A DNA stretch of 64,000 nt, taken from contig CAWATW010000004.1 in NCBI GenBank assembly GCA_963785075.1, positions 338,516-402,515 on the forward strand, written 5' to 3'. Of the stretch, positions 1,529 through 43,010 are shown in pieces; position 1 is the first letter of the stretch; each line of letters begins with the position of its first letter. Position numbers and translations under genes: made by a program. Below the pieces are notes generated by a model that worked only from the letters and a program-made list of their open reading frames with translations, searched no databases and was not told where the DNA came from. This stretch comes from an uncultured bacterium. GTDB taxonomy: Bacteria > Actinomycetota > Acidimicrobiia > Spongiisociales > ZC4RG35.

Positions 1529-3055
1529 ATGGCGGCCACCGAAACCTTGAAGCGTCTCCTTCGGGACCTGACCGCCTCCCAGAAGTCCGTGATGGCGGCA
1601 GCAACCGTCGTCGTCCTGATCGCGTCGGCGGCGTTCTTCACCTGGGTGACGCAGCCTTCGTACACTGTTCTCTATTCGGGGATCGACGAGACCCAGCTCA
1701 GCCAGGTCGTGGACTCATTGGAGGCTGCGGGCGTGCCGTATCGGCTCGAAGGCGGTGGATCGAGGGTCCTCGTGCCGCAGGACTCGGTGTACCGGGTTCG
1801 AGCCGACCTCGCCGCCGACGGGATCCAGGCCTCGGTGGTCCCTCAGGGTTACGAACTGCTCGACGAGCAGGGGCTTTCGGTGTCGGACTTTCGCCAGCGC
1901 GTCGACTACCAACGAGCTCTCGAGGGTGAACTCGCCCGAACTCTCACAGCGATGGGGTCGGTCGACAGCTCGACAGTGCATCTGGTCATCCCCGAAGAGG
2001 CGCTCTTCGTGGAGAACCAAGAGCCGGTGACGGCTTCGGTGCTCGTCGATCCGAATGGTTCCCTCGCCGACTCGGACATCGAAGCGATCGTGATGCTTGT
2101 CGCATCCTCGGTCGAAGGCCTCGAACCCAGCCAGGTCACAGTCGCCTCGACCGATGGGGTCGTTCTCCATGCCGCCGGAGAGGACGGCGCCACTGCGCTC
2201 GGCAATCGCCAGCTCAGGCTGACGTCGGACTTCGAGACTGCACTCTCCACCGACATCAACGAGATGCTGGCATCGGTCCTCGGGGCTGGGCGCGCATCGG
2301 TCGTCGTCCGCGCCGAGCTCGACTTCGACGAGCGCTCGACCGAGAGCGAGACCTATTCCCCCGAGTCGGCGACCGCCCTCCGTAGCCAGGTGATCGAAGA
2401 GACCTTCACCGGAGCAGGCGCAGCGCCGGTCGGGTCGGTCGGTGTCGACGGCGCCGCCATCGACACCGGTGACGGGGCGTACGACTACTCCCGGAACGAG
2501 GACACCACCGAGTTCGGCATCGATCGAGTCGTGGTCAAGACCACCGAGGCGCCCGGAACGGTCGAACGTCTCTCGGTGGCCGTGGTCGTGGACGACGGCA
2601 GCCTCACCGGGGCGACCGCGCCCGACGTGACGGCGATCGAGTCCCTCGTCACGGCTGCGATCGGCGCACAACAGCAACGCGGCGATACGGTCGAGGTGTC
2701 GGCCGTGCCATTCCCCGCATTGCCCGAAGCAATCGAAGGAGCGCCCTTGGAAGAGGGCGGGATCATGACGTTGATCCCGACGATCATCGGCGCGCTCGTC
2801 CTCCTGCTCGTCACGGTGGCACTGTTCCTGATGAGCCGGGGCAGCAAGAAGAAGGCGAGGAAGGGCGAGATCATCGAGCTCGCGCAGGCATTGCCGGGTG
2901 GCGACGGATCCGCGATCGACGCCAACGACATGGCCAATCAGAACGCCGTTCTCGGCCTCACCGACGACGTGATCCAACTCGTGGAACGTCAGCCGGAGGA
3001 GATCGCCACCCTGCTCAGGTCTTGGCTCGCCGACCGCCGTGAGACGGTGGGCTGA
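1529..3055 (+). CDS. fliF: flagellar MS-ring protein FliF
   Basis: 508 aa with an N-terminal TM segment, a periplasmic ring region (..YRLEGGGSRVLVPQDSVYRVRADLA..), a C-terminal TM segment and a charged tail. Confidence 0.9.
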   Translation: MAATETLKRLLRDLTASQKSVMAAATVVVLIASAAFFTWVTQPSYTVLYSGIDETQLSQVVDSLEAAGVPYRLEGGGSRVLVPQDSVYRVRADLAADGIQASVVPQGYELLDEQGLSVSDFRQRVDYQRALEGELARTLTAMGSVDSSTVHLVIPEEALFVENQEPVTASVLVDPNGSLADSDIEAIVMLVASSVEGLEPSQVTVASTDGVVLHAAGEDGATALGNRQLRLTSDFETALSTDINEMLASVLGAGRASVVVRAELDFDERSTESETYSPESATALRSQVIEETFTGAGAAPVGSVGVDGAAIDTGDGAYDYSRNEDTTEFGIDRVVVKTTEAPGTVERLSVAVVVDDGSLTGATAPDVTAIESLVTAAIGAQQQRGDTVEVSAVPFPALPEAIEGAPLEEGGIMTLIPTIIGALVLLLVTVALFLMSRGSKKKARKGEIIELAQALPGGDGSAIDANDMANQNAVLGLTDDVIQLVERQPEEIATLLRSWLADRRETVG

Positions 3056-4083
3056 TGGCAAACGGCTCTGCGCTTCCTGTCCCGACCGGCCCCCGAGGGG
3101 TGGCCGTCCCCGCACCTCGCCAGCGAGCGGCGGCTCTCGTGCTGGCGATCGGGTCGGGCAAAGCAGCCAACATCCTCGAGCATCTCAGTCCCGACGAGAT
3201 AGCACTCCTCGCGGAGGAGGTCTCCAGCCTCGGCGACATCGACTCGGCGACGCGCAATTCGCTCATGGCGCGCACGCTCAACCACATGATGTCCATCGAT
3301 CCGAGCGAGGAGGCACGACTGCTGAGGATGCGTGCCGATGCCATGAGGGCTGCGGCAGAGCTGGATGAGCTCGGACACTTCGACCCGCACCAGCCCTTTC
3401 GATTCCTCCAGAAGGTGGAGCTCGACCAGGCGGTTCAGTTCCTCGCCAACGAGCACCCTCAGACCGCCGCCGTGATCCTCGCAGCGCAGCCGCCTACCTT
3501 CGCAGCCAAGGTGTTGTCCCACTTCGATCCGACCGAGGCAGGCGACATCTCGCTTCGCATCGCCACCATCGGCAAGACGCCGACCGAGGTCATCCAACGG
3601 ATCGAGCAGGCGATGCGAAAGAACCTCAGCGAAAGCAACGAAGGCGAGGGCGAAACGCGAGACGGACCAAAGGAGCTGGCCGCAATCCTCAACAACGCAG
3701 ATCGCGACATAGAGGAGAAGGTGCTCGCCCATCTCACCTCGTTCGACCAGGAACTCGCCGAACGAGTTCGATCGCTCATGTTCGTCTTCGAGGATGTTCA
3801 GACGCTCGAAGACCGGGCCATCCAGCAGGTACTGCAACAGGTGAACACGAACTCGCTGGCACTTGCCCTGAAAGGCGTCGACGAGGCCGTACGCGACAAG
3901 ATCCTCAACAACCTGTCGGAGCGGGCACGCGAGTCGCTCCTGGAGGAATTCGATCTCCTCGGCGCCGTCCGCAAACAGGACGTCATGGAGGCTCGGACCG
4001 CAATCGTCGCCACCATCCGCTCGCTCGAGGCGAGCGGCCAGATCGTGATCGCAAGAGGAGACGACAGTGAGTTCATCGAATAG
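3055..4083 (+). CDS. fliG: flagellar motor switch protein FliG
   Basis: 342 aa, ..AALVLAIGSGKAANILEHLSPDEIALLAEEV.. and a FliG C-terminal domain. ATG overlaps the fliF TGA. Confidence 0.9.
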   Translation: MANGSALPVPTGPRGVAVPAPRQRAAALVLAIGSGKAANILEHLSPDEIALLAEEVSSLGDIDSATRNSLMARTLNHMMSIDPSEEARLLRMRADAMRAAAELDELGHFDPHQPFRFLQKVELDQAVQFLANEHPQTAAVILAAQPPTFAAKVLSHFDPTEAGDISLRIATIGKTPTEVIQRIEQAMRKNLSESNEGEGETRDGPKELAAILNNADRDIEEKVLAHLTSFDQELAERVRSLMFVFEDVQTLEDRAIQQVLQQVNTNSLALALKGVDEAVRDKILNNLSERARESLLEEFDLLGAVRKQDVMEARTAIVATIRSLEASGQIVIARGDDSEFIE

Positions 4084-35106: not shown

Positions 35107-35180
35107 CCCCCGGACGGGTTTTCGCGCACAAAAGGTGCGCTATTCACGCATTTCGTGCGCGAAAACACGATCCCGTCTCC
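35107..35180. repeat. copy 1 of a ~70-bp hairpin-containing direct repeat (17-bp arm gacgggttttcgcgcac ... gtgcgcgaaaac[acgat]cccgtc)
   Basis: About 97% identical to 36575-36643. The right arm is interrupted by a 5-nt insertion. Inner palindrome gcgcac-aaaag-gtgcgc. Confidence 0.7.
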
Positions 35181-35248: not shown

Positions 35249-35572
35249 ATGGATACGACCCAGGTACTCAAAGGGGTGCTGGACACCGCCGTGCTTGCAG
35301 TTCTGGCGAAGGCGAGCACATATGGCTACGACCTCGTCCGCCAGCTGCGTGAAGCGGGGCTCGAGGATGTTGGGGATGCATCCGTCTACGGGACGCTGCG
35401 ACGACTCTTCTCAGGTGGCTACCTGACGTCCGAGATCGTTCCCTCGGACGAGGGGCCTGCCCGCAAGTACTACGGCATCAACGCCGCCGGCCGCGACCTG
35501 CTCGCTCGCTCGACCAAGACGTGGAACCACCTGTCGAGTGTGATGAACGATCTGTTGGAGGAAGTCGCATGA
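35249..35572 (+). CDS. PadR-family transcriptional regulator
   Basis: ..LKGVLDTAVLAVLAKASTYGYDLVRQLREAGL..DASVYGTLRRLFSGGYLTSEIVPSDEGPARKYYGINAAGRDLL.. is the winged-HTH PadR signature. GGGAGGAG RBS. Confidence 0.85.
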   Translation: MDTTQVLKGVLDTAVLAVLAKASTYGYDLVRQLREAGLEDVGDASVYGTLRRLFSGGYLTSEIVPSDEGPARKYYGINAAGRDLLARSTKTWNHLSSVMNDLLEEVA

Positions 35573-36574
35573 GCACTACCACTCTCTTCCCCGCCGCCGT
35601 CGCATTCCTCGATCAGGTTCGCGAGCTGCTCGGCGACCTCACCGACGAGGACCGCGAGGAGGTGATCCAGGACCTCGAGGCGCACCTTGAGGATCTCGGC
35701 GTCACCAGCATCGAGCAGTCACTCGGCACCGCGGAGGCCTTCGTCGACGAGTTCCGCGCCAGCGCTGGGTTGTCCGCCGACAGCACCAAGCCTCGGGGAA
35801 GGGTGTCGACGCTCGTCGATGGGGTCGTAGATCGATGGATGGCAAGCTGGGAGCATCCTGTGATTGCGCAGCTGAACAAATTGACCGAGCCATTGAGGCC
35901 GGCATGGCCCTGGATCAGGGCGTGGCTCGCGCTGATGCTCGTCGCCTTCGGCACAGCGTGGGACGGAGTCGTGTTCCGGCGATTCCCCATTCCGAGTGTG
36001 AATGGGAGCGCGGTGACCGGTCTCGCGGCACTGGCGCTGGTCACCTGGATCTCGGTCACCGCCCAGCGCCGAGGACACCGGACTCGTCGCTTGACCGGCG
36101 GCATCCTCAATCTCGCCGCTGCGATCGCAATCCTGATCGGGGTGTTCGCACCATATGCCTTGATGACGTCGTGGGCGGCAAACAGCTACCAGCATCAGGA
36201 CACCGTTACCGCCTACGGAGGACTGGTCGGACCGTACGGCGACATCTCGAACATCCACGCATACGACCGTGACGGAAACCCGGTGGAAGTGTTGCTCTAC
36301 GACCAGGACGGCAACCCGCTGAGCAGTGTCCCAGGACGTGTACTTCATCGACGTCGGACAGATGGGCGACTCGTGGGGCGCCGTCAGATTCGGCACCGAC
36401 GCCTACGGCCAGCCGATCACCAACCTCTTTCCGCTCGAACGATTGGGCGAGATCTGGACCAACGGGACGGTGAGCTACGACGAGTTGCCTCCTCCGCGCG
36501 TCGCCCTGCCAGATCTCGGGGTACAAAGGGCCAATACGGTTCCGTCGACGATCGTCATCCCACCCGTCGACTGA
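35569..36574 (+). CDS. PadR-associated membrane protein (DUF1700-like N-terminus), apparently interrupted by a +1 frameshift near 36320-36330
   Basis: ATG overlaps the padR stop. Frame 1 reads plausibly up to ..LLYDQDGNPLSSVP. Frame 2 then reads plausibly (..DVYFIDVGQMGDSWGAVRFGTDAYGQPITNLFPLERLGEIW..) as far as the TGA at 36572-74. Confidence 0.45.
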
Positions 36575-36643
36575 CCCCCGGACGGGTTTTCGCGCACAAA
36601 AGGTGCGCTATTCACGCACTTTGTGCGCGAAAACCCGTCTCTG
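36575..36643. repeat. copy 2 of the ~70-bp repeat with an intact perfect 17-bp inverted repeat gacgggttttcgcgcac-N25-gtgcgcgaaaacccgtc, between convergent stops
   Basis: Directly read. Lies exactly between the + gene stop (36574) and the folK-fusion stop (36646). Confidence 0.7.
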
Positions 36644-36645
36644 GG

Positions 36646-37599
36646 TCACCAGATGACGGGGATGAATCGGCGCGGGACACGGACCCGGTATGACGAGTAC
36701 TCGGGATGGGCGAGCGTGAGGGCACGTTCCTCCATGCCCGACTTGTAGCGGAACAGCACAGCCAGCGCGATCAGCGGCACCAGCGCCCACGACGACGACA
36801 AGGTGATCGAGGCACCGACACCTCCGAGCAGGAGTCCGCCGTAGATGGGATGTCGCACCATCCCGAACACGCCACGCTGCACGAGGTTGGCGCCGGGACG
36901 GGGATCCGGCAGTGCCGAAAGGTCCTTTCCCAGAGCCAGCAGGGCGCCGACCGCGAGGAATCCGCCGAGCGCAGCCACAGCCACGCCCAACGTGAGCCGC
37001 CATGCCACCGGCTCGAGGTCGCCCGTGAACACCGCAATGGAGGCAAAGACGAGAAACAGGACGAACTGCAGACCCACGAGAACATGACCGAGCGTTCCAA
37101 GCCGGGGCTGATCGACAACCCAATGACCGGCCCAGCGGAACACCCCGCCCGGCGGTACCGCGGCCAGCGCTGCGGCCGCCGACAGACCGGACGAGACCAT
37201 CACGTCGGGTGCGATCTCGGCAACCGGTTCGAGCACGAAGCGGCGCTCGATCGCCCTGGGGTGCGGCACTACGAGCGCGGGCTCCTCGATGACCTCGTCG
37301 CCATGGCAGATCAAGTCGATGTCCAGCGTTCGCGGTCCCCACTGGATGTCCCGTACACGCCCGGCCTCTCGTTCGATCGCCAATACCGCATCGAGAAGAC
37401 GACGCGCCGACAGTTCCGTATCGATCAAGACGGCAGCATTCAGGAAACGGCCTTGGACAGGGCCACCCACCGGGTCGGTCTCGTAGAGCGACGACACCGC
37501 GACGACCGAACCGAGTTCGCCGATGCGCAACACCGCGGTCCGCATGTGCTCGAGGCGATCTCCGATGTTCGAGCCCAGCGCCAGGATCGACCTCGTCAT
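36646..37599 (-). CDS. folK: HPPK (FolK) fused to a C-terminal ICMT/PEMT-like membrane methyltransferase-family domain
   Basis: N-term MTRSILALGSNIGDRL..LYETDPVGGP..PRTLDIDLI is the HPPK signature. C-term ..RHPIYGGLLLGGVGASITL..EERALTLAHPEYSSYRVRVPRRFIP resembles the isoprenylcysteine carboxyl methyltransferase / phospholipid methyltransferase family. Single continuous ORF. Confidence 0.7.
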   Translation of the reverse strand: MTRSILALGSNIGDRLEHMRTAVLRIGELGSVVAVSSLYETDPVGGPVQGRFLNAAVLIDTELSARRLLDAVLAIEREAGRVRDIQWGPRTLDIDLICHGDEVIEEPALVVPHPRAIERRFVLEPVAEIAPDVMVSSGLSAAAALAAVPPGGVFRWAGHWVVDQPRLGTLGHVLVGLQFVLFLVFASIAVFTGDLEPVAWRLTLGVAVAALGGFLAVGALLALGKDLSALPDPRPGANLVQRGVFGMVRHPIYGGLLLGGVGASITLSSSWALVPLIALAVLFRYKSGMEERALTLAHPEYSSYRVRVPRRFIPVIW

Positions 37600-37958
37600 C
37601 GGGAACGACTGATCTGGACGGCCACGTCCCTGAACGGCATCCCGATCGGCGCTCGCGGCTTGTGAACAGCCACGTCGACCGATCGACAGAGACGGAATTC
37701 GTCCAGCACCGTCTCGGCGACGCGCTCGGCAACCCGTTCGATGAGCTGCCACCGCTCGCCGCCAACCACCGCGTGCACGCGATGGGTCAGATCGGCATAG
37801 TCGACGGTGGCCGTCAGATCATCGGTGCGCCCAGCCTCGCCCAGATCCAGGTGAAGGGTCAGATCGACCACGAAGGGCTGCGGGAATTCGGCCTCGTGCG
37901 GGCTGCAGCCGTGTGTTCCGTACACCTCGATGCCAAAGACAGAAAGCGAGTCGCTCAC
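37596..37958 (-). CDS. folB: dihydroneopterin aldolase
   Basis: ..FGIEVYGTHGCSPHEAEFPQPFVVDLTLHLDL..TDDLTATVDYADL.. ATGA overlap with folK. Confidence 0.85.
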   Translation of the reverse strand: MSDSLSVFGIEVYGTHGCSPHEAEFPQPFVVDLTLHLDLGEAGRTDDLTATVDYADLTHRVHAVVGGERWQLIERVAERVAETVLDEFRLCRSVDVAVHKPRAPIGMPFRDVAVQISRSR

Positions 37959-38440
37959 GAGTCGCCCACGGGGCCGGGTATGAGCGCCCGTCCCTCCGGG
38001 CCGAGCGGACGCCCGAGGATCTCCTGGATGATGGCTGCTGCCAGGATTCGATCGTCCAGCAGGCCGGAGACGATCAGATACCCACCGAGCAGGCCGGCCA
38101 GGACGTCGTCGATGACCTCACGATGAACCAGGACGCGGGCGTGAGGATCGGACAGCGCCTCGTCCAGAGCTGCGTAGAGCTTGGCCGGGAAGGACTTGTC
38201 CATGTCTGTCATCGGCACCGAGATCGTCCGGATGCCGGCCGCAGCGTACGCTCCGACGTTCTGATTACCGGGCAGCAGGTTCACGACACAGGTGATCCTG
38301 GCCTCCGATACGAGCCAGGTGATCTCCTCCTCGCGCCTCACACGCCGATGCTGGAAACCATTACCCCCGATACGTTCCGACACGGCGAGCCGGTCGGAGA
38401 TGATCCAAGTGAATCCTCTGGGTTTGAGTCCGGTGATCAT
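37955..38440 (-). CDS. conserved hypothetical protein between folP and folB
   Basis: 161-aa ORF translationally coupled on both sides. No confident family. There is a weak resemblance to the tyrosine/dual-specificity phosphatase fold, but no CX5R P-loop. Confidence 0.35.
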   Translation of the reverse strand: MITGLKPRGFTWIISDRLAVSERIGGNGFQHRRVRREEEITWLVSEARITCVVNLLPGNQNVGAYAAAGIRTISVPMTDMDKSFPAKLYAALDEALSDPHARVLVHREVIDDVLAGLLGGYLIVSGLLDDRILAAAIIQEILGRPLGPEGRALIPGPVGDS

Positions 38441-39309
38441 GTACTGCTGTCTGGGGAGTTTGCGCGAGCGTCAACGATAGCCCGGGCGAGCAGCGCGGCA
38501 TGGCGTGACGCCAAGGGATCATGAACTCTCACTGCGGCCGCCCCCCGTTCGATTGCGAGCGCGGTGGTGACCGCAGTGGCGCCGTCTCTCATGCGAGGAT
38601 CCGGAAGATCCAACAGGGTTCCGAGGAAGCTCTTTCGAGACGTTCCGACCATCACCGGCCATCCCAGGGCCGTGATCTCCTCGAGGCGCGCCAGGAGTGC
38701 CAGGTTGTGTGCCGTGGTCTTGCCGAACCCGATGCCAGGGTCGAGGCAGATGCGATCAGAGCTCATGCCCTCTGCCAAACACAGCTCCGCCTGAGCTTCG
38801 AGGTACGACACCACCTCTCCAACCACATCGTCGTACTCGGGAGCTTCCTGCATGGTGCGGGGAAGGCCGCGCATGTGCATGACCACCACCCCCGCCCCCC
38901 GATCGATCGCCACTCGACGCATCTCGGGGTCGCGGAGCCCGCTGACGTCATTGATGATTTCGGCGCCCGCTTCGAGGGCGGCCGCCGCCACCTCTGCCTT
39001 CATCGTGTCGATCGAAACGATCGCGCCGGTTGATGCCAGTTCCTCGACGAGGGGAATCACACGACCGAGTTCGACATCGACGCTCACAGATTCGGCGCCG
39101 GGTCTCGTCGACTCGCCCCCGATGTCGACGATGTCAGCGCCGGCGGCCACCAACGCACGGCCGAACGGGATCGCCTCCGCCGGATCGACGTGATCCCCCC
39201 CATCGGAAAAGCTGTCGGGCGTGACGTTGAGGATCCCCATGATCACGGGGCTCGACAGATCCAATGTGCGCGACCTGAGCCGCCACGCCCGGTCCGTTGC
39301 GTCGACCAT
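38437..39309 (-). CDS. folP: dihydropteroate synthase
   Basis: ..VIMGILNVTPDSFSDGG.., ..DIVDIGGESTRPGA.., ..DPGIGFGKT.. Start at MVDATDRA (39309). Confidence 0.88.
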   Translation of the reverse strand: MVDATDRAWRLRSRTLDLSSPVIMGILNVTPDSFSDGGDHVDPAEAIPFGRALVAAGADIVDIGGESTRPGAESVSVDVELGRVIPLVEELASTGAIVSIDTMKAEVAAAALEAGAEIINDVSGLRDPEMRRVAIDRGAGVVVMHMRGLPRTMQEAPEYDDVVGEVVSYLEAQAELCLAEGMSSDRICLDPGIGFGKTTAHNLALLARLEEITALGWPVMVGTSRKSFLGTLLDLPDPRMRDGATAVTTALAIERGAAAVRVHDPLASRHAALLARAIVDARANSPDSST

Positions 39310-39322
39310 GCGGGCTGCCCGG

Positions 39323-41251
39323 TCAGTGGGTCGAGCGTGTGGGCTCGGTCTGTTGGGCGGCTGCGATCCCGCCGTTCGACGGGGCCGACGCCGATGGACG
39401 GCGAATCCGCAGCTCGCCACCGGCTGCATGCTCCCACTTGGGGACATCGTGGAAGACGCTGGCGACCTCGTCTCGATCGAGGGTCTCCCGCTCGATCAAC
39501 TCCACCGACAGCCGATGGAGAGCGTCGAGGTGGGACGAAATGATCTCGCGCGCCTCGTCGTGCGCAGCGCTGATGAGCGCACGCACTTCTTCGTCGATCC
39601 AGGCCGCCACCTCGTCGGAATAGTCGGCTTGACGGGTGTAGTCACGTCCCAGGAAGACCTCGCCGCTGGCATGGCCGTATTTCATCGGACCGAGCCGATC
39701 GCTCATTCCGAACTCCATCACCATGCGCCGGGCCAGGGCGGTCGCCTTCTCGATGTCGTTGGAGGCGCCGGTCGAGGGGTCCCCGAACACGATCTCCTCG
39801 GCGGTACGGCCACCAAGGGCGTAGGCCAGCTCGTCCACCATCTCGCTCCGGCGCTTGTAGTACCGGTCCTCGGTGGGCAGCGCCAGCGTGTATCCGCCGG
39901 CGCGGCCCCGCGGGATGATGGTCACCTTGTGGATCGGGTCGAGGTGCGGCAATGCGAAGCCCACCAGCGCATGTCCACCCTCGTGATACGCGGTGAGCTT
40001 CTTCTCGTCCTCGGACATCACTCGCGTCTTGCGCTCTGGTCCGGCCATCACCCGGTCGATGGCCTCTTCCAGCTCGTCCATGCCGATCTTCGTCTTCCGC
40101 CGACGCGCCGTGAGCAGCGCGGCCTCGTTGATGAGGTTGGCGAGATCGGCGCCGGTGAAACCGGGCGTGCGGCGAGCCAGCACTGCGAGCTCGACGTCGG
40201 TGTCGAATGGCTTGCCACGAGCGTGCACACCGAGGATGCCTTCACGGCCTCTGATGTCAGGGGCGTCGATGATGATCTGCCGGTCGAAACGTCCGGGCCG
40301 GAGCAGGGCCGGATCGAGGATGTCGGGCCGGTTCGTGGCAGCCATGACGATCACACCCGTGTTGCCTTCGAACCCGTCCAGCTCGACCAAGAGCTGGTTC
40401 AGCGTCTGTTCACGCTCGTCGTGTCCGCCGCCGAGACCGGCTCCACGATGCCGGCCGACAGCGTCGATCTCGTCGATGAACACGATCGCCGGTGCGTTCT
40501 GCTTGGCCTGATCGAAGAGGTCGCGAACGCGGCTGGCGCCGACACCCACGAACATCTCGACGAAGTCCGATCCGGAGATCGACAGGAACGGAACGCCTGC
40601 CTCTCCTGCGATGGCGCGGGCCAAGAGGGTTTTTCCGGTACCGGGCGGTCCGAACAGGAGCACACCTTTGGGGATCTTGGCTCCCAGGGCCCGGTACTTG
40701 TCGGGGTGGGACAGGAAGTCTTTGATCTCTTCGAGTTCTTCGATGGCCTCGTCGATGCCGGCCACGTCCTTGAAGGTGACTTTGGGCTGGTCCTTGCTGA
40801 TGGTCTTCGCCTTGGCCTTCCCGAATTGCATGACTCGGTTTCCCGATCCCTGCATCTGCATGAAGATGAAGACCATGAATCCGATCAGGAAGAGCCACGG
40901 GAGGAACCCGATCAGGATCTCGAAGAAGCTCGGCGGTTCGACGTCGTCTTCGACCTCCACACCGGCTGCGAGCACCTTGGCGGTGATGTCTCCCTCGTAC
41001 TGCTCGGGATACTTCACCACGAAGTCGTACGCATCCTCGGCCGCACTGGAGTCGACGAAGCGGCCGCGGATCCGGTCGCTCCGCTCGAGGATGACCACCT
41101 CTGCGATCTCGCCGGCCTCGAGCCGGTTCTCGAAGTCGGAGAGGACGATTTCGGTCGGCGCCGAGATCTGGTCGAACCACTGCTGGGCTACGACTGCGAG
41201 TACGGCGAAGACCAAGCCGTAGATGAGCAGCGTACGGAAGGTGCGGTTCAA
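39323..41251 (-). CDS. ftsH: ATP-dependent zinc metalloprotease FtsH
   Basis: N-terminal TM pair, AAA+ Walker [17 protein letters not shown] region, HEGGHALVG zinc site. Confidence 0.95.
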
Positions 41252-41459
41252 GGTCGGCCTCTGGTCGGTTGAGTCATGGGGTTGTCAGCGAGGAACGGCG
41301 GGACTTCACACGGAGTCGGAGACGCTCACGGTCGCACCGCTCACGCGGCGAGTGGCAGGCGACACCGAGCACCGGCCGTTCCTCCGAGACCACATGGTAC
41401 GGGACGATCCCGTCTAAGGGAACCTGAAGCGGTCGACAACCGGATCGCGACGTGCTGAC

Positions 41460-42044
41460 TCACTCCGGGTCACCCTCCATGACACCCACGTACGGGAGGT
41501 TCCGGTATCGCCCGGCGTAGTCGAGCCCGTATCCGATCACGAACTCAGGACCGATCTCGAAGCACGGATACCTGACGTCGATCGGCACCCGTTGAATGCC
41601 ACGCTTGACGAGCAGCGCAGCGATTTCGATCGACTCGGGCTTCCGTACCCGAAGGGATTTCATCAGATAGTTGAGGGTGAGTCCCGAGTCGATGATGTCC
41701 TCGACGATGAGGACGTGGCGGTCGGCGATCTCCTGGTCGAGATCCTTGAGGATGCGCACGACGCCGGACGTCTGAGTCGATGCGCCGTACGAGCTCACCG
41801 CCATGAAGTCGAACTCGACGGGAAGGTCGATGTGTCGCGCCAGGTCGGCCATCACCATGAAGGCCCCCTTGAGCACGCCGACGACCAGGAGGTCCCGGTC
41901 GCGATAGTCGGCAGTGATCTGAGCACCGACCTCGGTGAGCTTTGCGTCGATCTCATCGGCCGAAATGAGCGTTCGAATGCTTCCCAACGAAGATCCTCTG
42001 TCGCGAGGTTGCCAAGGTAGTTCACCGGCCGCGTCGGAGCACAA
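41460..42044 (-). CDS. hpt: hypoxanthine-guanine phosphoribosyltransferase
   Basis: ..LLVVGVLKGAFMVMADL.. and the PRPP-binding motif ..VLIVEDIIDSGLTL.. Exact start uncertain. Confidence 0.85.
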   Translation of the reverse strand: MCSDAAGELPWQPRDRGSSLGSIRTLISADEIDAKLTEVGAQITADYRDRDLLVVGVLKGAFMVMADLARHIDLPVEFDFMAVSSYGASTQTSGVVRILKDLDQEIADRHVLIVEDIIDSGLTLNYLMKSLRVRKPESIEIAALLVKRGIQRVPIDVRYPCFEIGPEFVIGYGLDYAGRYRNLPYVGVMEGDPE

Positions 42045-42065
42045 CCGAAACGGTGCTCGTTGTGC

Positions 42066-43010
42066 TCAGGACGTTCCGACACCCATCGTGAACAGGAGCC
42101 AACCACCATCGACGTCGACCGTGAGCCGGCCGATCTCGGCGCGCCTCACCCGCCGATGGGCGACATCCAGTGCCGTGTCGACCACCCGCAGCGGTGGCGG
42201 ATACGGTGGCTCGAGTGCCCTGATCGCCTGGCGCACCGCCCTCGCTGCGATCCCGGGATGAGCCGTCAGCAGCCCGCTGAGCGACAACCTGATCGCATCC
42301 GAGGTCACGACCCTGTCGATCTCGGAAGCGAGATCTTCGAGAACTGAGACATCCCTTCGGATCACCTCTGCCGACCGATGCAACGTGGTCGACAGACCAG
42401 CACCGAACGTCGATTCGATCACCGGCAGAAGATCGTTCCGGATCCTGTTCCGGAGATGACTCCGATCGAGGTTGGCAGGGTCATCGAACCAGGGCATCCC
42501 GGTGATCGCCGCCAACTCGCGTGCGTCCGACCTGCTCGAGTCGAGGAGCGGACGGACATAGGGAGGTTCGCAGTGTCCCATGCCCGCAAGCCCATCGAGC
42601 CCTGAACCCCGAACGAGGCGCATGAGCACGGTCTCGACCTGATCGTCACGGGTGTGGCCGACCACAAGCCATTCTGCGGGCCCCAGTGTTCGCGTCAGCG
42701 CCTCATGACGAACCGTCCGCGCTCGGGCCTCGTAGCTCGGACCCGCCGGAACCTCGACCCGCTCGAAAGTGAGTGGGATCGAAAGTCGGTTGGCGATCGA
42801 CACCGCGGCCACCTCCAGCCGATCGGCCGCCACCGATCCATGATGGACGTGGATCGCCCGCACGCTCCGGCCGGAGTCCACGGACAACCAGGCTGCCGCC
42901 GCCGAATCTGCCCCACCAGACAGCCCGACGACCAGATCGCCTCCCGGGCAATCGTTGAGAACGGAACGCGATTGGGCGGCGAGCTGGGTCAGCCGACGCG
43001 GTTCAGCCAT
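42066..43010 (-). CDS. tilS: tRNA(Ile)-lysidine synthetase
   Basis: PP-loop LVVGLSGGADSAAAAWL. Start at MAEPRRL (43010). Confidence 0.85.
   Translation of the reverse strand: MAEPRRLTQLAAQSRSVLNDCPGGDLVVGLSGGADSAAAAWLSVDSGRSVRAIHVHHGSVAADRLEVAAVSIANRLSIPLTFERVEVPAGPSYEARARTVRHEALTRTLGPAEWLVVGHTRDDQVETVLMRLVRGSGLDGLAGMGHCEPPYVRPLLDSSRSDARELAAITGMPWFDDPANLDRSHLRNRIRNDLLPVIESTFGAGLSTTLHRSAEVIRRDVSVLEDLASEIDRVVTSDAIRLSLSGLLTAHPGIAARAVRQAIRALEPPYPPPLRVVDTALDVAHRRVRRAEIGRLTVDVDGGWLLFTMGVGTS

Follow-up and report, generated by a model that had tools for sequence, protein, structure and literature searches.

A FolK fused in one gene to a predicted ICMT/PEMT-type membrane domain in Acidimicrobiia

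The enzyme 6-hydroxymethyl-7,8-dihydropterin pyrophosphokinase (HPPK), encoded by folK, moves pyrophosphate from ATP onto 6-hydroxymethyl-7,8-dihydropterin, and is a textbook soluble enzyme and antibacterial target. Described multifunctional forms carry HPPK in one polypeptide with a second catalytic domain, and include FolB-FolK of Streptococcus pneumoniae (2CG8), HPPK-DHPS of Francisella (3MCM), Arabidopsis (7MPY) and Plasmodium (5Z79), and yeast FOL1 (2BMB); these proteins are soluble, and the partner of HPPK is the enzyme of the preceding or following pathway step. The gene considered here, folK::ICMT-like, differs from them in that the partner is an integral-membrane domain of methyltransferase type. 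It lies in a 64,000-nucleotide stretch of DNA from an uncultured bacterium of the Acidimicrobiia (assembly GCA_963785075.1, contig CAWATW010000004.1, positions 338,516 to 402,515), hereafter the window, and the N-terminal domain of its product has the multifunctional HPPKs above among its structural matches. An earlier note on this DNA, made from the sequence alone, described folate-pathway kinases as normally soluble and stand-alone; HPPK does not always stand alone, given the soluble FolB-FolK and FolK-FolP proteins among the PDB matches.

For the membrane half of the protein, the closest described systems are the isoprenylcysteine carboxyl methyltransferases (ICMT), of which the enzyme of Methanosarcina acetivorans (Ma-ICMT, PDB 4A2N) has five helices and the eukaryotic ICMT/Ste14 proteins (5V7P/5VG9) have eight. 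The structures of ICMT, Tam46, sterol reductase and SRD5A share a membrane fold of the ICMT/sterol-reductase type. Small bacterial members of the same superfamily, as shown by the methanethiol S-methyltransferase MddA (NF045656) and the lipid A 1-phosphate O-methyltransferase LmtA of Leptospira (TIGR04571), methylate small molecules or lipids, not prenylated proteins. A phmmer search against solved structures aligns the fused C-terminal domain (hereafter the C-domain) with residues 45-191 of Ma-ICMT (4a2n) at E 6e-8 and with the Tribolium ICMT at E 3e-6, and the C-domain shares with Ma-ICMT the RHPxY and EE motifs and a predicted cytoplasmic active site. It differs from the ICMTs in having four helices, without the first helix of Ma-ICMT, in standing in no evident CaaX-processing context, and in being joined to an unrelated soluble enzyme.

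The fusion of HPPK to a membrane domain in one conserved gene is confirmed as genuine. The reading frame extends from an ATG at 37599 to a TGA stop at 36646-36648 (954 nt), its translation contains zero internal stops, and the product is 100% identical to a database protein (P0001) recovered in a search of 5.8 billion proteins. The single open reading frame (ORF) proposed in the earlier note is upheld, with a corrected length of 317 aa, since 318 counts the stop, and on the minus strand, which had been left unstated. The motifs that had been listed are all located: RHPIYGG at aa 249-255, EE at aa 290-291, L294, HPEY at aa 298-301, Y304 and VPRRFIP at aa 308-314. A check for a hidden stop or start, or for a frameshift that would separate two genes, finds a single ORF both in the window and in 85 aligned orthologues, mostly 310-325 aa in length. 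The GC content at third codon positions (GC3) is 0.80 in the first half of the fusion and 0.77 in the second, and 0.76-0.83 in the adjoining genes. The start codon of the fusion overlaps the stop codon of folB in the sequence ATGA, which fits translational coupling of the two genes. A longer GTG-started frame (368 aa, from 37752) was rejected; it overlaps folB and is supported by zero homologues.

The HPPK half of the protein is complete. Pfam PF01288 matches aa 5-131 with E 5e-38 and 130.4 bits (cut-off 25.7) over profile positions 1-116 of 116, and with 137.8 bits the protein lies above the cut-off of 54.1 for the NCBIfam folK equivalog TIGR01498, in agreement with the HPPK catalytic domain that had been read from the letters. 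This part aligns end to end with the 159-aa HPPK of Yersinia (2qx0), the alignment ending at W156, and its three-layer alpha-beta-alpha HPPK fold is intact through the C-terminal Trp. Across 86 aligned fusion sequences the invariant residues of this half are N11, Q49, N54, E76, R81, R90, D93, D95, H113, R119 and F121. By alignment, D93, D95, R81, R90, H113 and R119 correspond, at an offset of roughly +2, to D95, D97, R82, R92, H115 and R121 of the E. coli enzyme, of which the mutant structures in the PDB target N10, Q50, N55, E77, R82, R92, D95, D97, H115 and F123. The domain is predicted to be catalytically competent.

Beyond a short linker, the AlphaFold2 (AF2) model of the fusion contains four transmembrane (TM) helices at aa 169-192, 199-226, 251-267 and 270-297, followed by a short helix at aa 301-307. 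The mean predicted local distance difference test (pLDDT) of 93.9 and predicted template modelling score (pTM) of 0.87 lead to a prediction of the whole fusion as one rigid unit. Lysine and arginine together number 0 in both short outer loops, 3 in the loop at aa 227-250 and 6 in the C-tail. Under the positive-inside rule, such a distribution predicts that the C-tail, the loop at aa 227-250 and the N-terminus all face the cytoplasm, an N-in/C-in topology in which HPPK and the methyltransferase pocket would share the cytoplasmic face of the membrane.

The C-domain belongs to the ICMT/PEMT group by several measures. Between aa 200 and 294, PEMT (PF04191) scores 34.8 bits with the whole protein and 37.2 bits with the domain alone (cut-off 25), and ICMT (PF04140) scores 24.7 and 26.4 bits, respectively (cut-off 24), the latter by a slight margin. 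The polytopic segment of ICMT/PEMT character that the earlier note had described is thereby recovered, with four helices and both families above their Pfam thresholds. In structural comparison the top neighbour is AtTam46 (8xkv_G, score 14.6), followed by Ma-ICMT (4a2n_B, 13.7, over 148 residues at 2.7 Å), an insect ICMT (5vg9_A, 13.4), a sterol reductase (4quv_B, 12.6) and SRD5A (7c83_A, 8.3); the C-domain has the helical membrane fold common to ICMT and the sterol reductases. Assignment to a described enzyme was tried and rejected in each case. As an ICMT proper, the C-domain scores 44.8-47.3 bits against the 160 set for the NF040696 equivalog, in a match that starts from position 43 of the profile and residue 45 of the chain; as MddA it gives no match to NF045656 at E<=10; and as LmtA it scores 14.1 bits to TIGR04571, with a cut-off of 325. 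Judged by its sequence, and with every NCBIfam equivalog cut-off missed by far, the C-domain is not an orthologue of ICMT, MddA or LmtA; it is probably not one of PEMT proper either, its match in that direction being to the generic Pfam PEMT domain.

The putative cofactor pocket is strongly conserved. No substitution occurs among the 86 fusions at R249, H250, P251, Y253, K286, E290, E291 or Y304, and conservation of Y301 reaches 90% or more. In the alignment with Ma-ICMT, R249-Y253 correspond to R125-Y129, K286 to R163, E290/E291 to E167/E168 and Y301/Y304 to Y179/Y182; Arg163 is thus a Lys in the fusion, and H113/K114 of Ma-ICMT are replaced by A237/N238. The Ma-ICMT residue R163 reportedly binds the substrate carboxylate, a role ascribed to work of Yang et al. 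in 2011. In a computational paper, R125-Y129, Y179 and Y182 of Ma-ICMT line the pocket for S-adenosylhomocysteine (SAH) (PMC12643142). The invariance of the pocket residues suggests that methyltransferase activity has been retained, and the C-domain is probably an active S-adenosylmethionine (SAM)-dependent methyltransferase that would still bind SAM and methylate some acceptor, probably amphipathic or anionic.

The architecture is not confined to the window. The search of 5.8 billion proteins yields about 88 further clusters with HPPK followed by PEMT, mostly of 310-325 aa and down to about 38-40% identity, which stem from NCBI, ENA, JGI and Logan assemblies; a profile search with the C-terminal domain adds further fusions among representatives at 50% identity, and a scan of a genome collection with the window protein returns one other fusion (L001, 94% identical). 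Looking up the exact sequence of the window protein among contigs gives no match. All fusion entries that carry an organism name are metagenome-assembled genomes of Acidimicrobiia, annotated just as FolK. In the 86-sequence alignment the mean column identity is 47%, with invariant residues in both halves. Fused operon neighbours are a common annotation artefact, and a few truncated forms such as P0100, P0114 and P0053 occur in the databases, so that folK and a separate membrane-protein gene might have been joined in this one genome through loss of a stop or through a frameshift introduced in sequencing or assembly. This explanation is effectively refuted, its likelihood being close to nil: the ORF is continuous with uniform GC3; about 100 independent clusters from the different assembly sources have the same architecture; the junction region itself holds conserved residues (W160, Q178); and the same single gene is present on the independent long contigs L047 (3.48 Mb), L054 (751 kb) and L055 (900 kb). 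Equal length and architecture maintained down to about 40% identity are far beyond chance. Database naming masks this architecture, as whole proteins are called "FolK" and fragments "Ste14". No paper mentioning an HPPK-ICMT/PEMT combination was found in the literature. The sequences themselves are already public; what is new is the recognition of a lineage-wide membrane-integrated HPPK fused to a methyltransferase-type domain, a new domain architecture built from two known families.

Among non-fused proteins, the best HPPK matches have 188-202 aa and are 50-62% identical over the HPPK part, and the named ones are all from Acidimicrobiia. Each of these FolKs (P0090-P0120) has a single hydrophobic helix as its C-terminus, as in ...TSAWLFVVVALAAVAIWWLGDLLFG, at the point where TM1 of the fusion starts; they are predicted to be tail-anchored HPPKs and are thus not plain soluble enzymes. 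In the two single-TM loci read, L048 and L049, the operon is ftsH-folP-157aa-folK, without folB and folE, and no ICMT-like gene is found near folK. In a neighbour-joining (NJ) tree with 12 HPPKs of other phyla as outgroup, the HPPKs of Acidimicrobiia form one group in which 28 single-TM FolKs are a block nested among the fusions, and this nesting suggests that the single-TM form arose by truncation. Since these relatives end in a TM helix, HPPK would be tethered to the membrane either way, fused or not. The membrane tethering that had been proposed for the fusion is therefore well supported, by the topology as well as by the single-TM relatives.

A parallel arrangement is seen in Actinomycetes, in which a separate four-helix membrane gene of the DUF3180 family directly follows folK in five of the five loci read (Tsukamurella, two Arthrobacter strains, Nonomuraea and Nocardia). 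These loci come from a plasmid collection, three of the records, of 1.0 to 11.9 Mb, presumably being mislabelled chromosomes. The two annotated loci, of Tsukamurella and Arthrobacter ERGS1:01, have the order ftsH-folE-folP-folB-folK and then DUF3180, with folP missing from the Arthrobacter gene table, and the DUF3180 gene of Tsukamurella overlaps the folK stop with its start. For the three loci without annotation, folB, folK and the DUF3180 ORF were read straight from the DNA. The DUF3180 proteins of Tsukamurella and Nonomuraea match PF11377 at E 1e-32 and 1e-39. The pair Rv3606c/Rv3605c of M. tuberculosis, outside the loci read here, is presumably a folK/DUF3180 pair as well. No paper on DUF3180 was found in the literature. 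The two systems have in common the operon ftsH-folE-folP-folB-folK and a membrane module of four helices and about 150 aa right after HPPK, the C-domain occupying exactly the operon position of DUF3180. They differ in that DUF3180 is a gene of its own with no detectable homology to the ICMT-like domain, and its conserved motifs, P-x3-A-R-x3-LA-x-A and LE-x2-C-x2-P, do not include those of the SAM pocket. The C-domain was tried as a DUF3180 protein, as the earlier note had raised the chance of a common actinobacterial DUF membrane protein, and this is excluded: PF11377 gives no match at E<=10, and hhalign against an alignment of five DUF3180 proteins gives a probability of 1.3%. HPPK hence has its membrane partner as a four-helix domain fused to it, as one helix at its tail, or as the product of a separate DUF3180 gene.

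Free relatives of the C-domain are abundant. A profile search returns 44,661 matches at E<=1e-3 and 393 at E<=1e-30, and the closest non-fused members are 145-165 aa long, with the same motifs as the fused domain and the IMG name "Ste14". One of them, P0128, scores 17 bits against the MddA cut-off of 270 and 25 bits against the LmtA cut-off of 325. In the loci read the free genes do not lie in fol contexts, their neighbours being clpB, an archease gene, a class-I methyltransferase gene or a MarR regulator gene, and this placement, with ordinary membership of the family, argues against a dedicated folate role. An overlapping archease gene follows the free homologue in two of the four loci, and clpB adjoins it in two of the four. 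Archease, known to assist RtcB ligase and an RNA methyltransferase, was rejected as an invariable companion of the free genes, being present in just two of the four loci. Placement of the free genes in a clpC1-lysS-pan-fol syntenic region was also rejected, as the neighbouring Clp is ClpB-like and 46-48% identical to the ClpC of L054. A single fusion event could not be read off the C-domain tree, in which fused and free forms interleave. The fusion offers an entry point to this large, uncharacterised family of small bacterial ICMT-type methyltransferases (393 close relatives), for which it at least fixes the topology and supplies a co-expressed partner.

Taken together, these data favour, with modest confidence, a reading in which membrane tethering of HPPK is the selected property, in an N-in/C-in arrangement and with a predicted methyltransferase activity retained on some acceptor. 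The gene would encode a membrane-integrated, probably bifunctional FolK, the anchor of which is probably an active SAM-dependent methyltransferase; its two activities probably do not follow each other in a single pathway, and selection on the fusion would maintain above all the membrane location of HPPK. Tethering is placed first because of the single-TM relatives and the DUF3180 parallel. Several points weigh against this reading. Invariance of the pocket residues implies selection on the methyltransferase function itself, so that an anchor is not the whole story, and fused and free C-domains interleave in their NJ tree. The HPPK trees are simple NJ trees without support values and are indicative only, the locus sample is small, with few fusion loci and two single-TM loci read, and the positional equivalence with DUF3180 is not homology and could be coincidence. 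For every member of the group, the reading draws on sequence and model evidence.

An alternative is metabolic coupling, akin to the link to a methylation step that the earlier note had raised, in which the domain would methylate a pterin/folate-branch metabolite or else a pterin that is modified or linked to a lipid, and the fusion would channel or co-regulate two steps; a methyl ester on a carboxylate (para-aminobenzoate (pABA), dihydropteroate) or a methylated pterin would be an example. The tight joint, with a linker of about 12 aa in one rigid predicted unit, the prediction of both active sites on the cytoplasmic face, and the location of the fusion always inside or beside fol genes are consistent with such coupling. 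The invariant K286 is compatible with an anionic acceptor, if the role reported for R163 of Ma-ICMT is right, and members of the family, for which NCBIfam holds models of ICMT, MddA and LmtA, methylate carboxylates, amines, thiols and phosphates. However, no canonical folate step needs a methylation of this kind, and esters of pABA or dihydropteroate would block FolP or FolC; the shared motifs and interleaving of fused and free C-domains indicate a pocket without fusion-specific remodelling, the free relatives read lie outside fol operons, and the sister clade lost the domain yet kept a TM helix. Coupling of the two steps is considered unlikely. The same invariant cofactor pocket would also suit a pseudo-enzyme that binds SAM or SAH without turnover, serving as an anchor and as a sensor that tunes HPPK to one-carbon status. 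The supply of folate is tied metabolically to the synthesis of SAM, the predicted packing between the domains is rigid, and the Ma-ICMT SAH contacts H113/K114 are those not conserved in the fusion; but the putative substrate-side residues K286 and E290/E291 are invariant too, as in a working enzyme, and the many free proteins of about 150 aa that carry these motifs cannot regulate a fused partner. To our knowledge there is no precedent for a SAM/SAH-sensing pseudo-enzyme of the ICMT-like kind on HPPK, and this explanation is regarded as quite improbable.

A scaffold role has also to be weighed against the preferred reading of a tethered, probably bifunctional FolK. In this alternative the ICMT-like domain would dock HPPK, and perhaps other fol enzymes, onto FtsH, in parallel with AtTam46 (At5g59500, 8XKV chain G), an ICMT-like subunit described as part of the chloroplast FtsHi-Ycf2 import motor (PMC13533914). 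In every locus read, of Acidimicrobiia and of Actinomycetes alike, ftsH lies ahead of the fol genes, but this linkage is also found where FolK is soluble. Tam46 matches weakly in sequence (E 1.7e-4 over 78 residues); the plant protein has seven helices, is similar just in its C-terminal region of about 80 residues, and has no link to a folate enzyme. Docking onto FtsH is thought very improbable. That Tam46 is the top structural neighbour while ftsH heads the fol operon is possibly a coincidence.

Lineage-wide membrane HPPK, the single-TM FolKs and DUF3180 suggest recurrent membrane association in actinobacterial folate synthesis. A broader proposal would hold the pterin branch in Actinomycetota to be membrane-organised by way of these three elements, the fused methyltransferase of Acidimicrobiia acting on a pathway molecule or on a partner (FtsH, lipid) that controls the pathway, and is put forward as distinctly doubtful. 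If true, it would imply an unrecognised enzymatic step together with compartmentalisation, and possibly a methylated or membrane-associated pterin or folate derivative, and a Cys-less phosphatase-fold protein of 161 aa, encoded in the same operon, would be a further component of the branch. If the two activities are unrelated, the gene is an ordinary though tidy fusion of operon neighbours. The fusion would be unexpected to a folate specialist, and the evidence so far is not for new chemistry.

Table 1. Positions of the fusion gene, its parts and neighbouring features in the window, and of related genes in the loci compared (locus names precede their own coordinates).
Feature	Position	Strand	Basis or remark
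Fusion gene folK::ICMT-like	36646..37599	minus	317 codons + stop; ORF listing, translation, 85 aligned orthologues
HPPK (FolK) catalytic domain, aa 1-156, complete, predicted cytoplasmic	37132..37599	minus	Pfam, TIGR01498, alignment
Linker, aa 157-168 (AGHWVVDQPRLG), with nearly invariant W160	37096..37131	minus	end of HPPK alignment; first AF2 helix at aa 169
ICMT/PEMT-type membrane domain, aa 169-317	36649..37095	minus	Pfam, phmmer, AF2, charge distribution
RHPIY motif, aa 249-253, putative part of SAM/SAH pocket	36841..36855	minus	invariance, Ma-ICMT alignment
K286-x3-E290-E291 motif on last helix	36727..36744	minus	invariance, Ma-ICMT alignment
folB (dihydroneopterin aldolase)	37596..37958	minus	Pfam FolB E 7e-36
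161-aa conserved operon member	37955..38440	minus	no family; dual-specificity-phosphatase fold without catalytic Cys
folP (dihydropteroate synthase)	38437..39288	minus	Pfam Pterin_bind E 8e-86
ftsH, upstream of fol genes	39323..41251	minus	tblastn vs L047 FtsH, ORF listing
hpt (tilS further upstream; operon span 36646..42623)	41472..41981	minus	tblastn vs L047
Perfect hairpin, directly after and overlapping the fusion stop	36572..36648		RNA fold -57.6 kcal/mol, z = -9.85
Single-TM folK P0119	L048 5001-5573		
Single-TM folK P0113	L049 5001-5567		
DUF3180 gene	L059 4486-5013		
DUF3180 gene	L060 4615-5124		
DUF3180 gene	L061 ~2995-3447		
DUF3180 gene	L062 ~3050-3516		
DUF3180 gene	L063 ~3030-3549		
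Free ICMT-like gene locus	L051 5001-5905		free proteins of these three loci 153-155 aa
Free ICMT-like gene locus	L053 852-1729		
Free ICMT-like gene locus	L056 394-4462		

The window carries tilS, hpt, ftsH, folP, the 161-aa ORF, folB and the fusion in this order on the minus strand (Table 1). Identities to the L047 proteins in tblastn are 82% for FtsH, 87% for Hpt and 44% for TilS. The mechanical ORF of folP reaches 39447, and homology places its start near 39288, the tblastn match with the FolP of L047 covering 39288..38449. The fusion is the last fol gene in five of the five fusion loci read, including the window, L047, L054 and L055, and directly follows folB in three. In L047, L055 and both annotated loci of Actinomycetes, ftsH and folP are separated by folE, a gene that has no tblastn match anywhere in the 64-kb window.

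The 161-aa ORF between folP and folB may equal the fusion in interest. It occupies the same place in every Acidimicrobiia fol locus read (L047, L048, L049, L054 and L055), whether FolK is fused or single-TM, and is absent from the two annotated Actinomycete loci. Its product has 1461 homologues, for which all names given are "hypothetical", and no Pfam or NCBIfam match. The window and L047 versions are 78% identical, compared with 50-56% for FolP, FolB and the fusion. At the P-loop position the sequence reads H106-R107-E108-x-x-D111-D112, and the protein is a candidate for binding phosphate or a pterin phosphate within the pathway.

A polyprenyl synthase gene is found close to the fusion in two mutually distant loci, L054 (5998-6996, convergent and immediately downstream) and L055 (10816-10951), a proximity that may matter if the true acceptor of the methyltransferase is a prenyl lipid.

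Downstream of the fusion in the window, the perfect hairpin contains a terminator-like inner stem and parts the fusion from a convergent gene for a HAAS-like membrane protein, itself paired with a PadR regulator gene; it is a probable bidirectional terminator or repeat element. A hairpin element of about 65 nt (CCCCCGGACGGGTTTTCGCGCACAAAAGGTGCGCTATTCACGCA...GTGCGCGAAAAC) is present in two direct copies, at 35111..35172 and 36579..36640, which are about 95% identical and flank the padR/HAAS-like gene pair. This element could be a terminator, a repeat resembling repetitive extragenic palindromic (REP) sequences or miniature inverted-repeat transposable elements (MITE), or an operator. The HAAS-like gene (35569..36574, plus strand) aligns with its L047 orthologue in frame 1 as far as 36330 and in frame 2 from 36377, which suggests a frameshift that would reflect either a pseudogene or a sequencing error.

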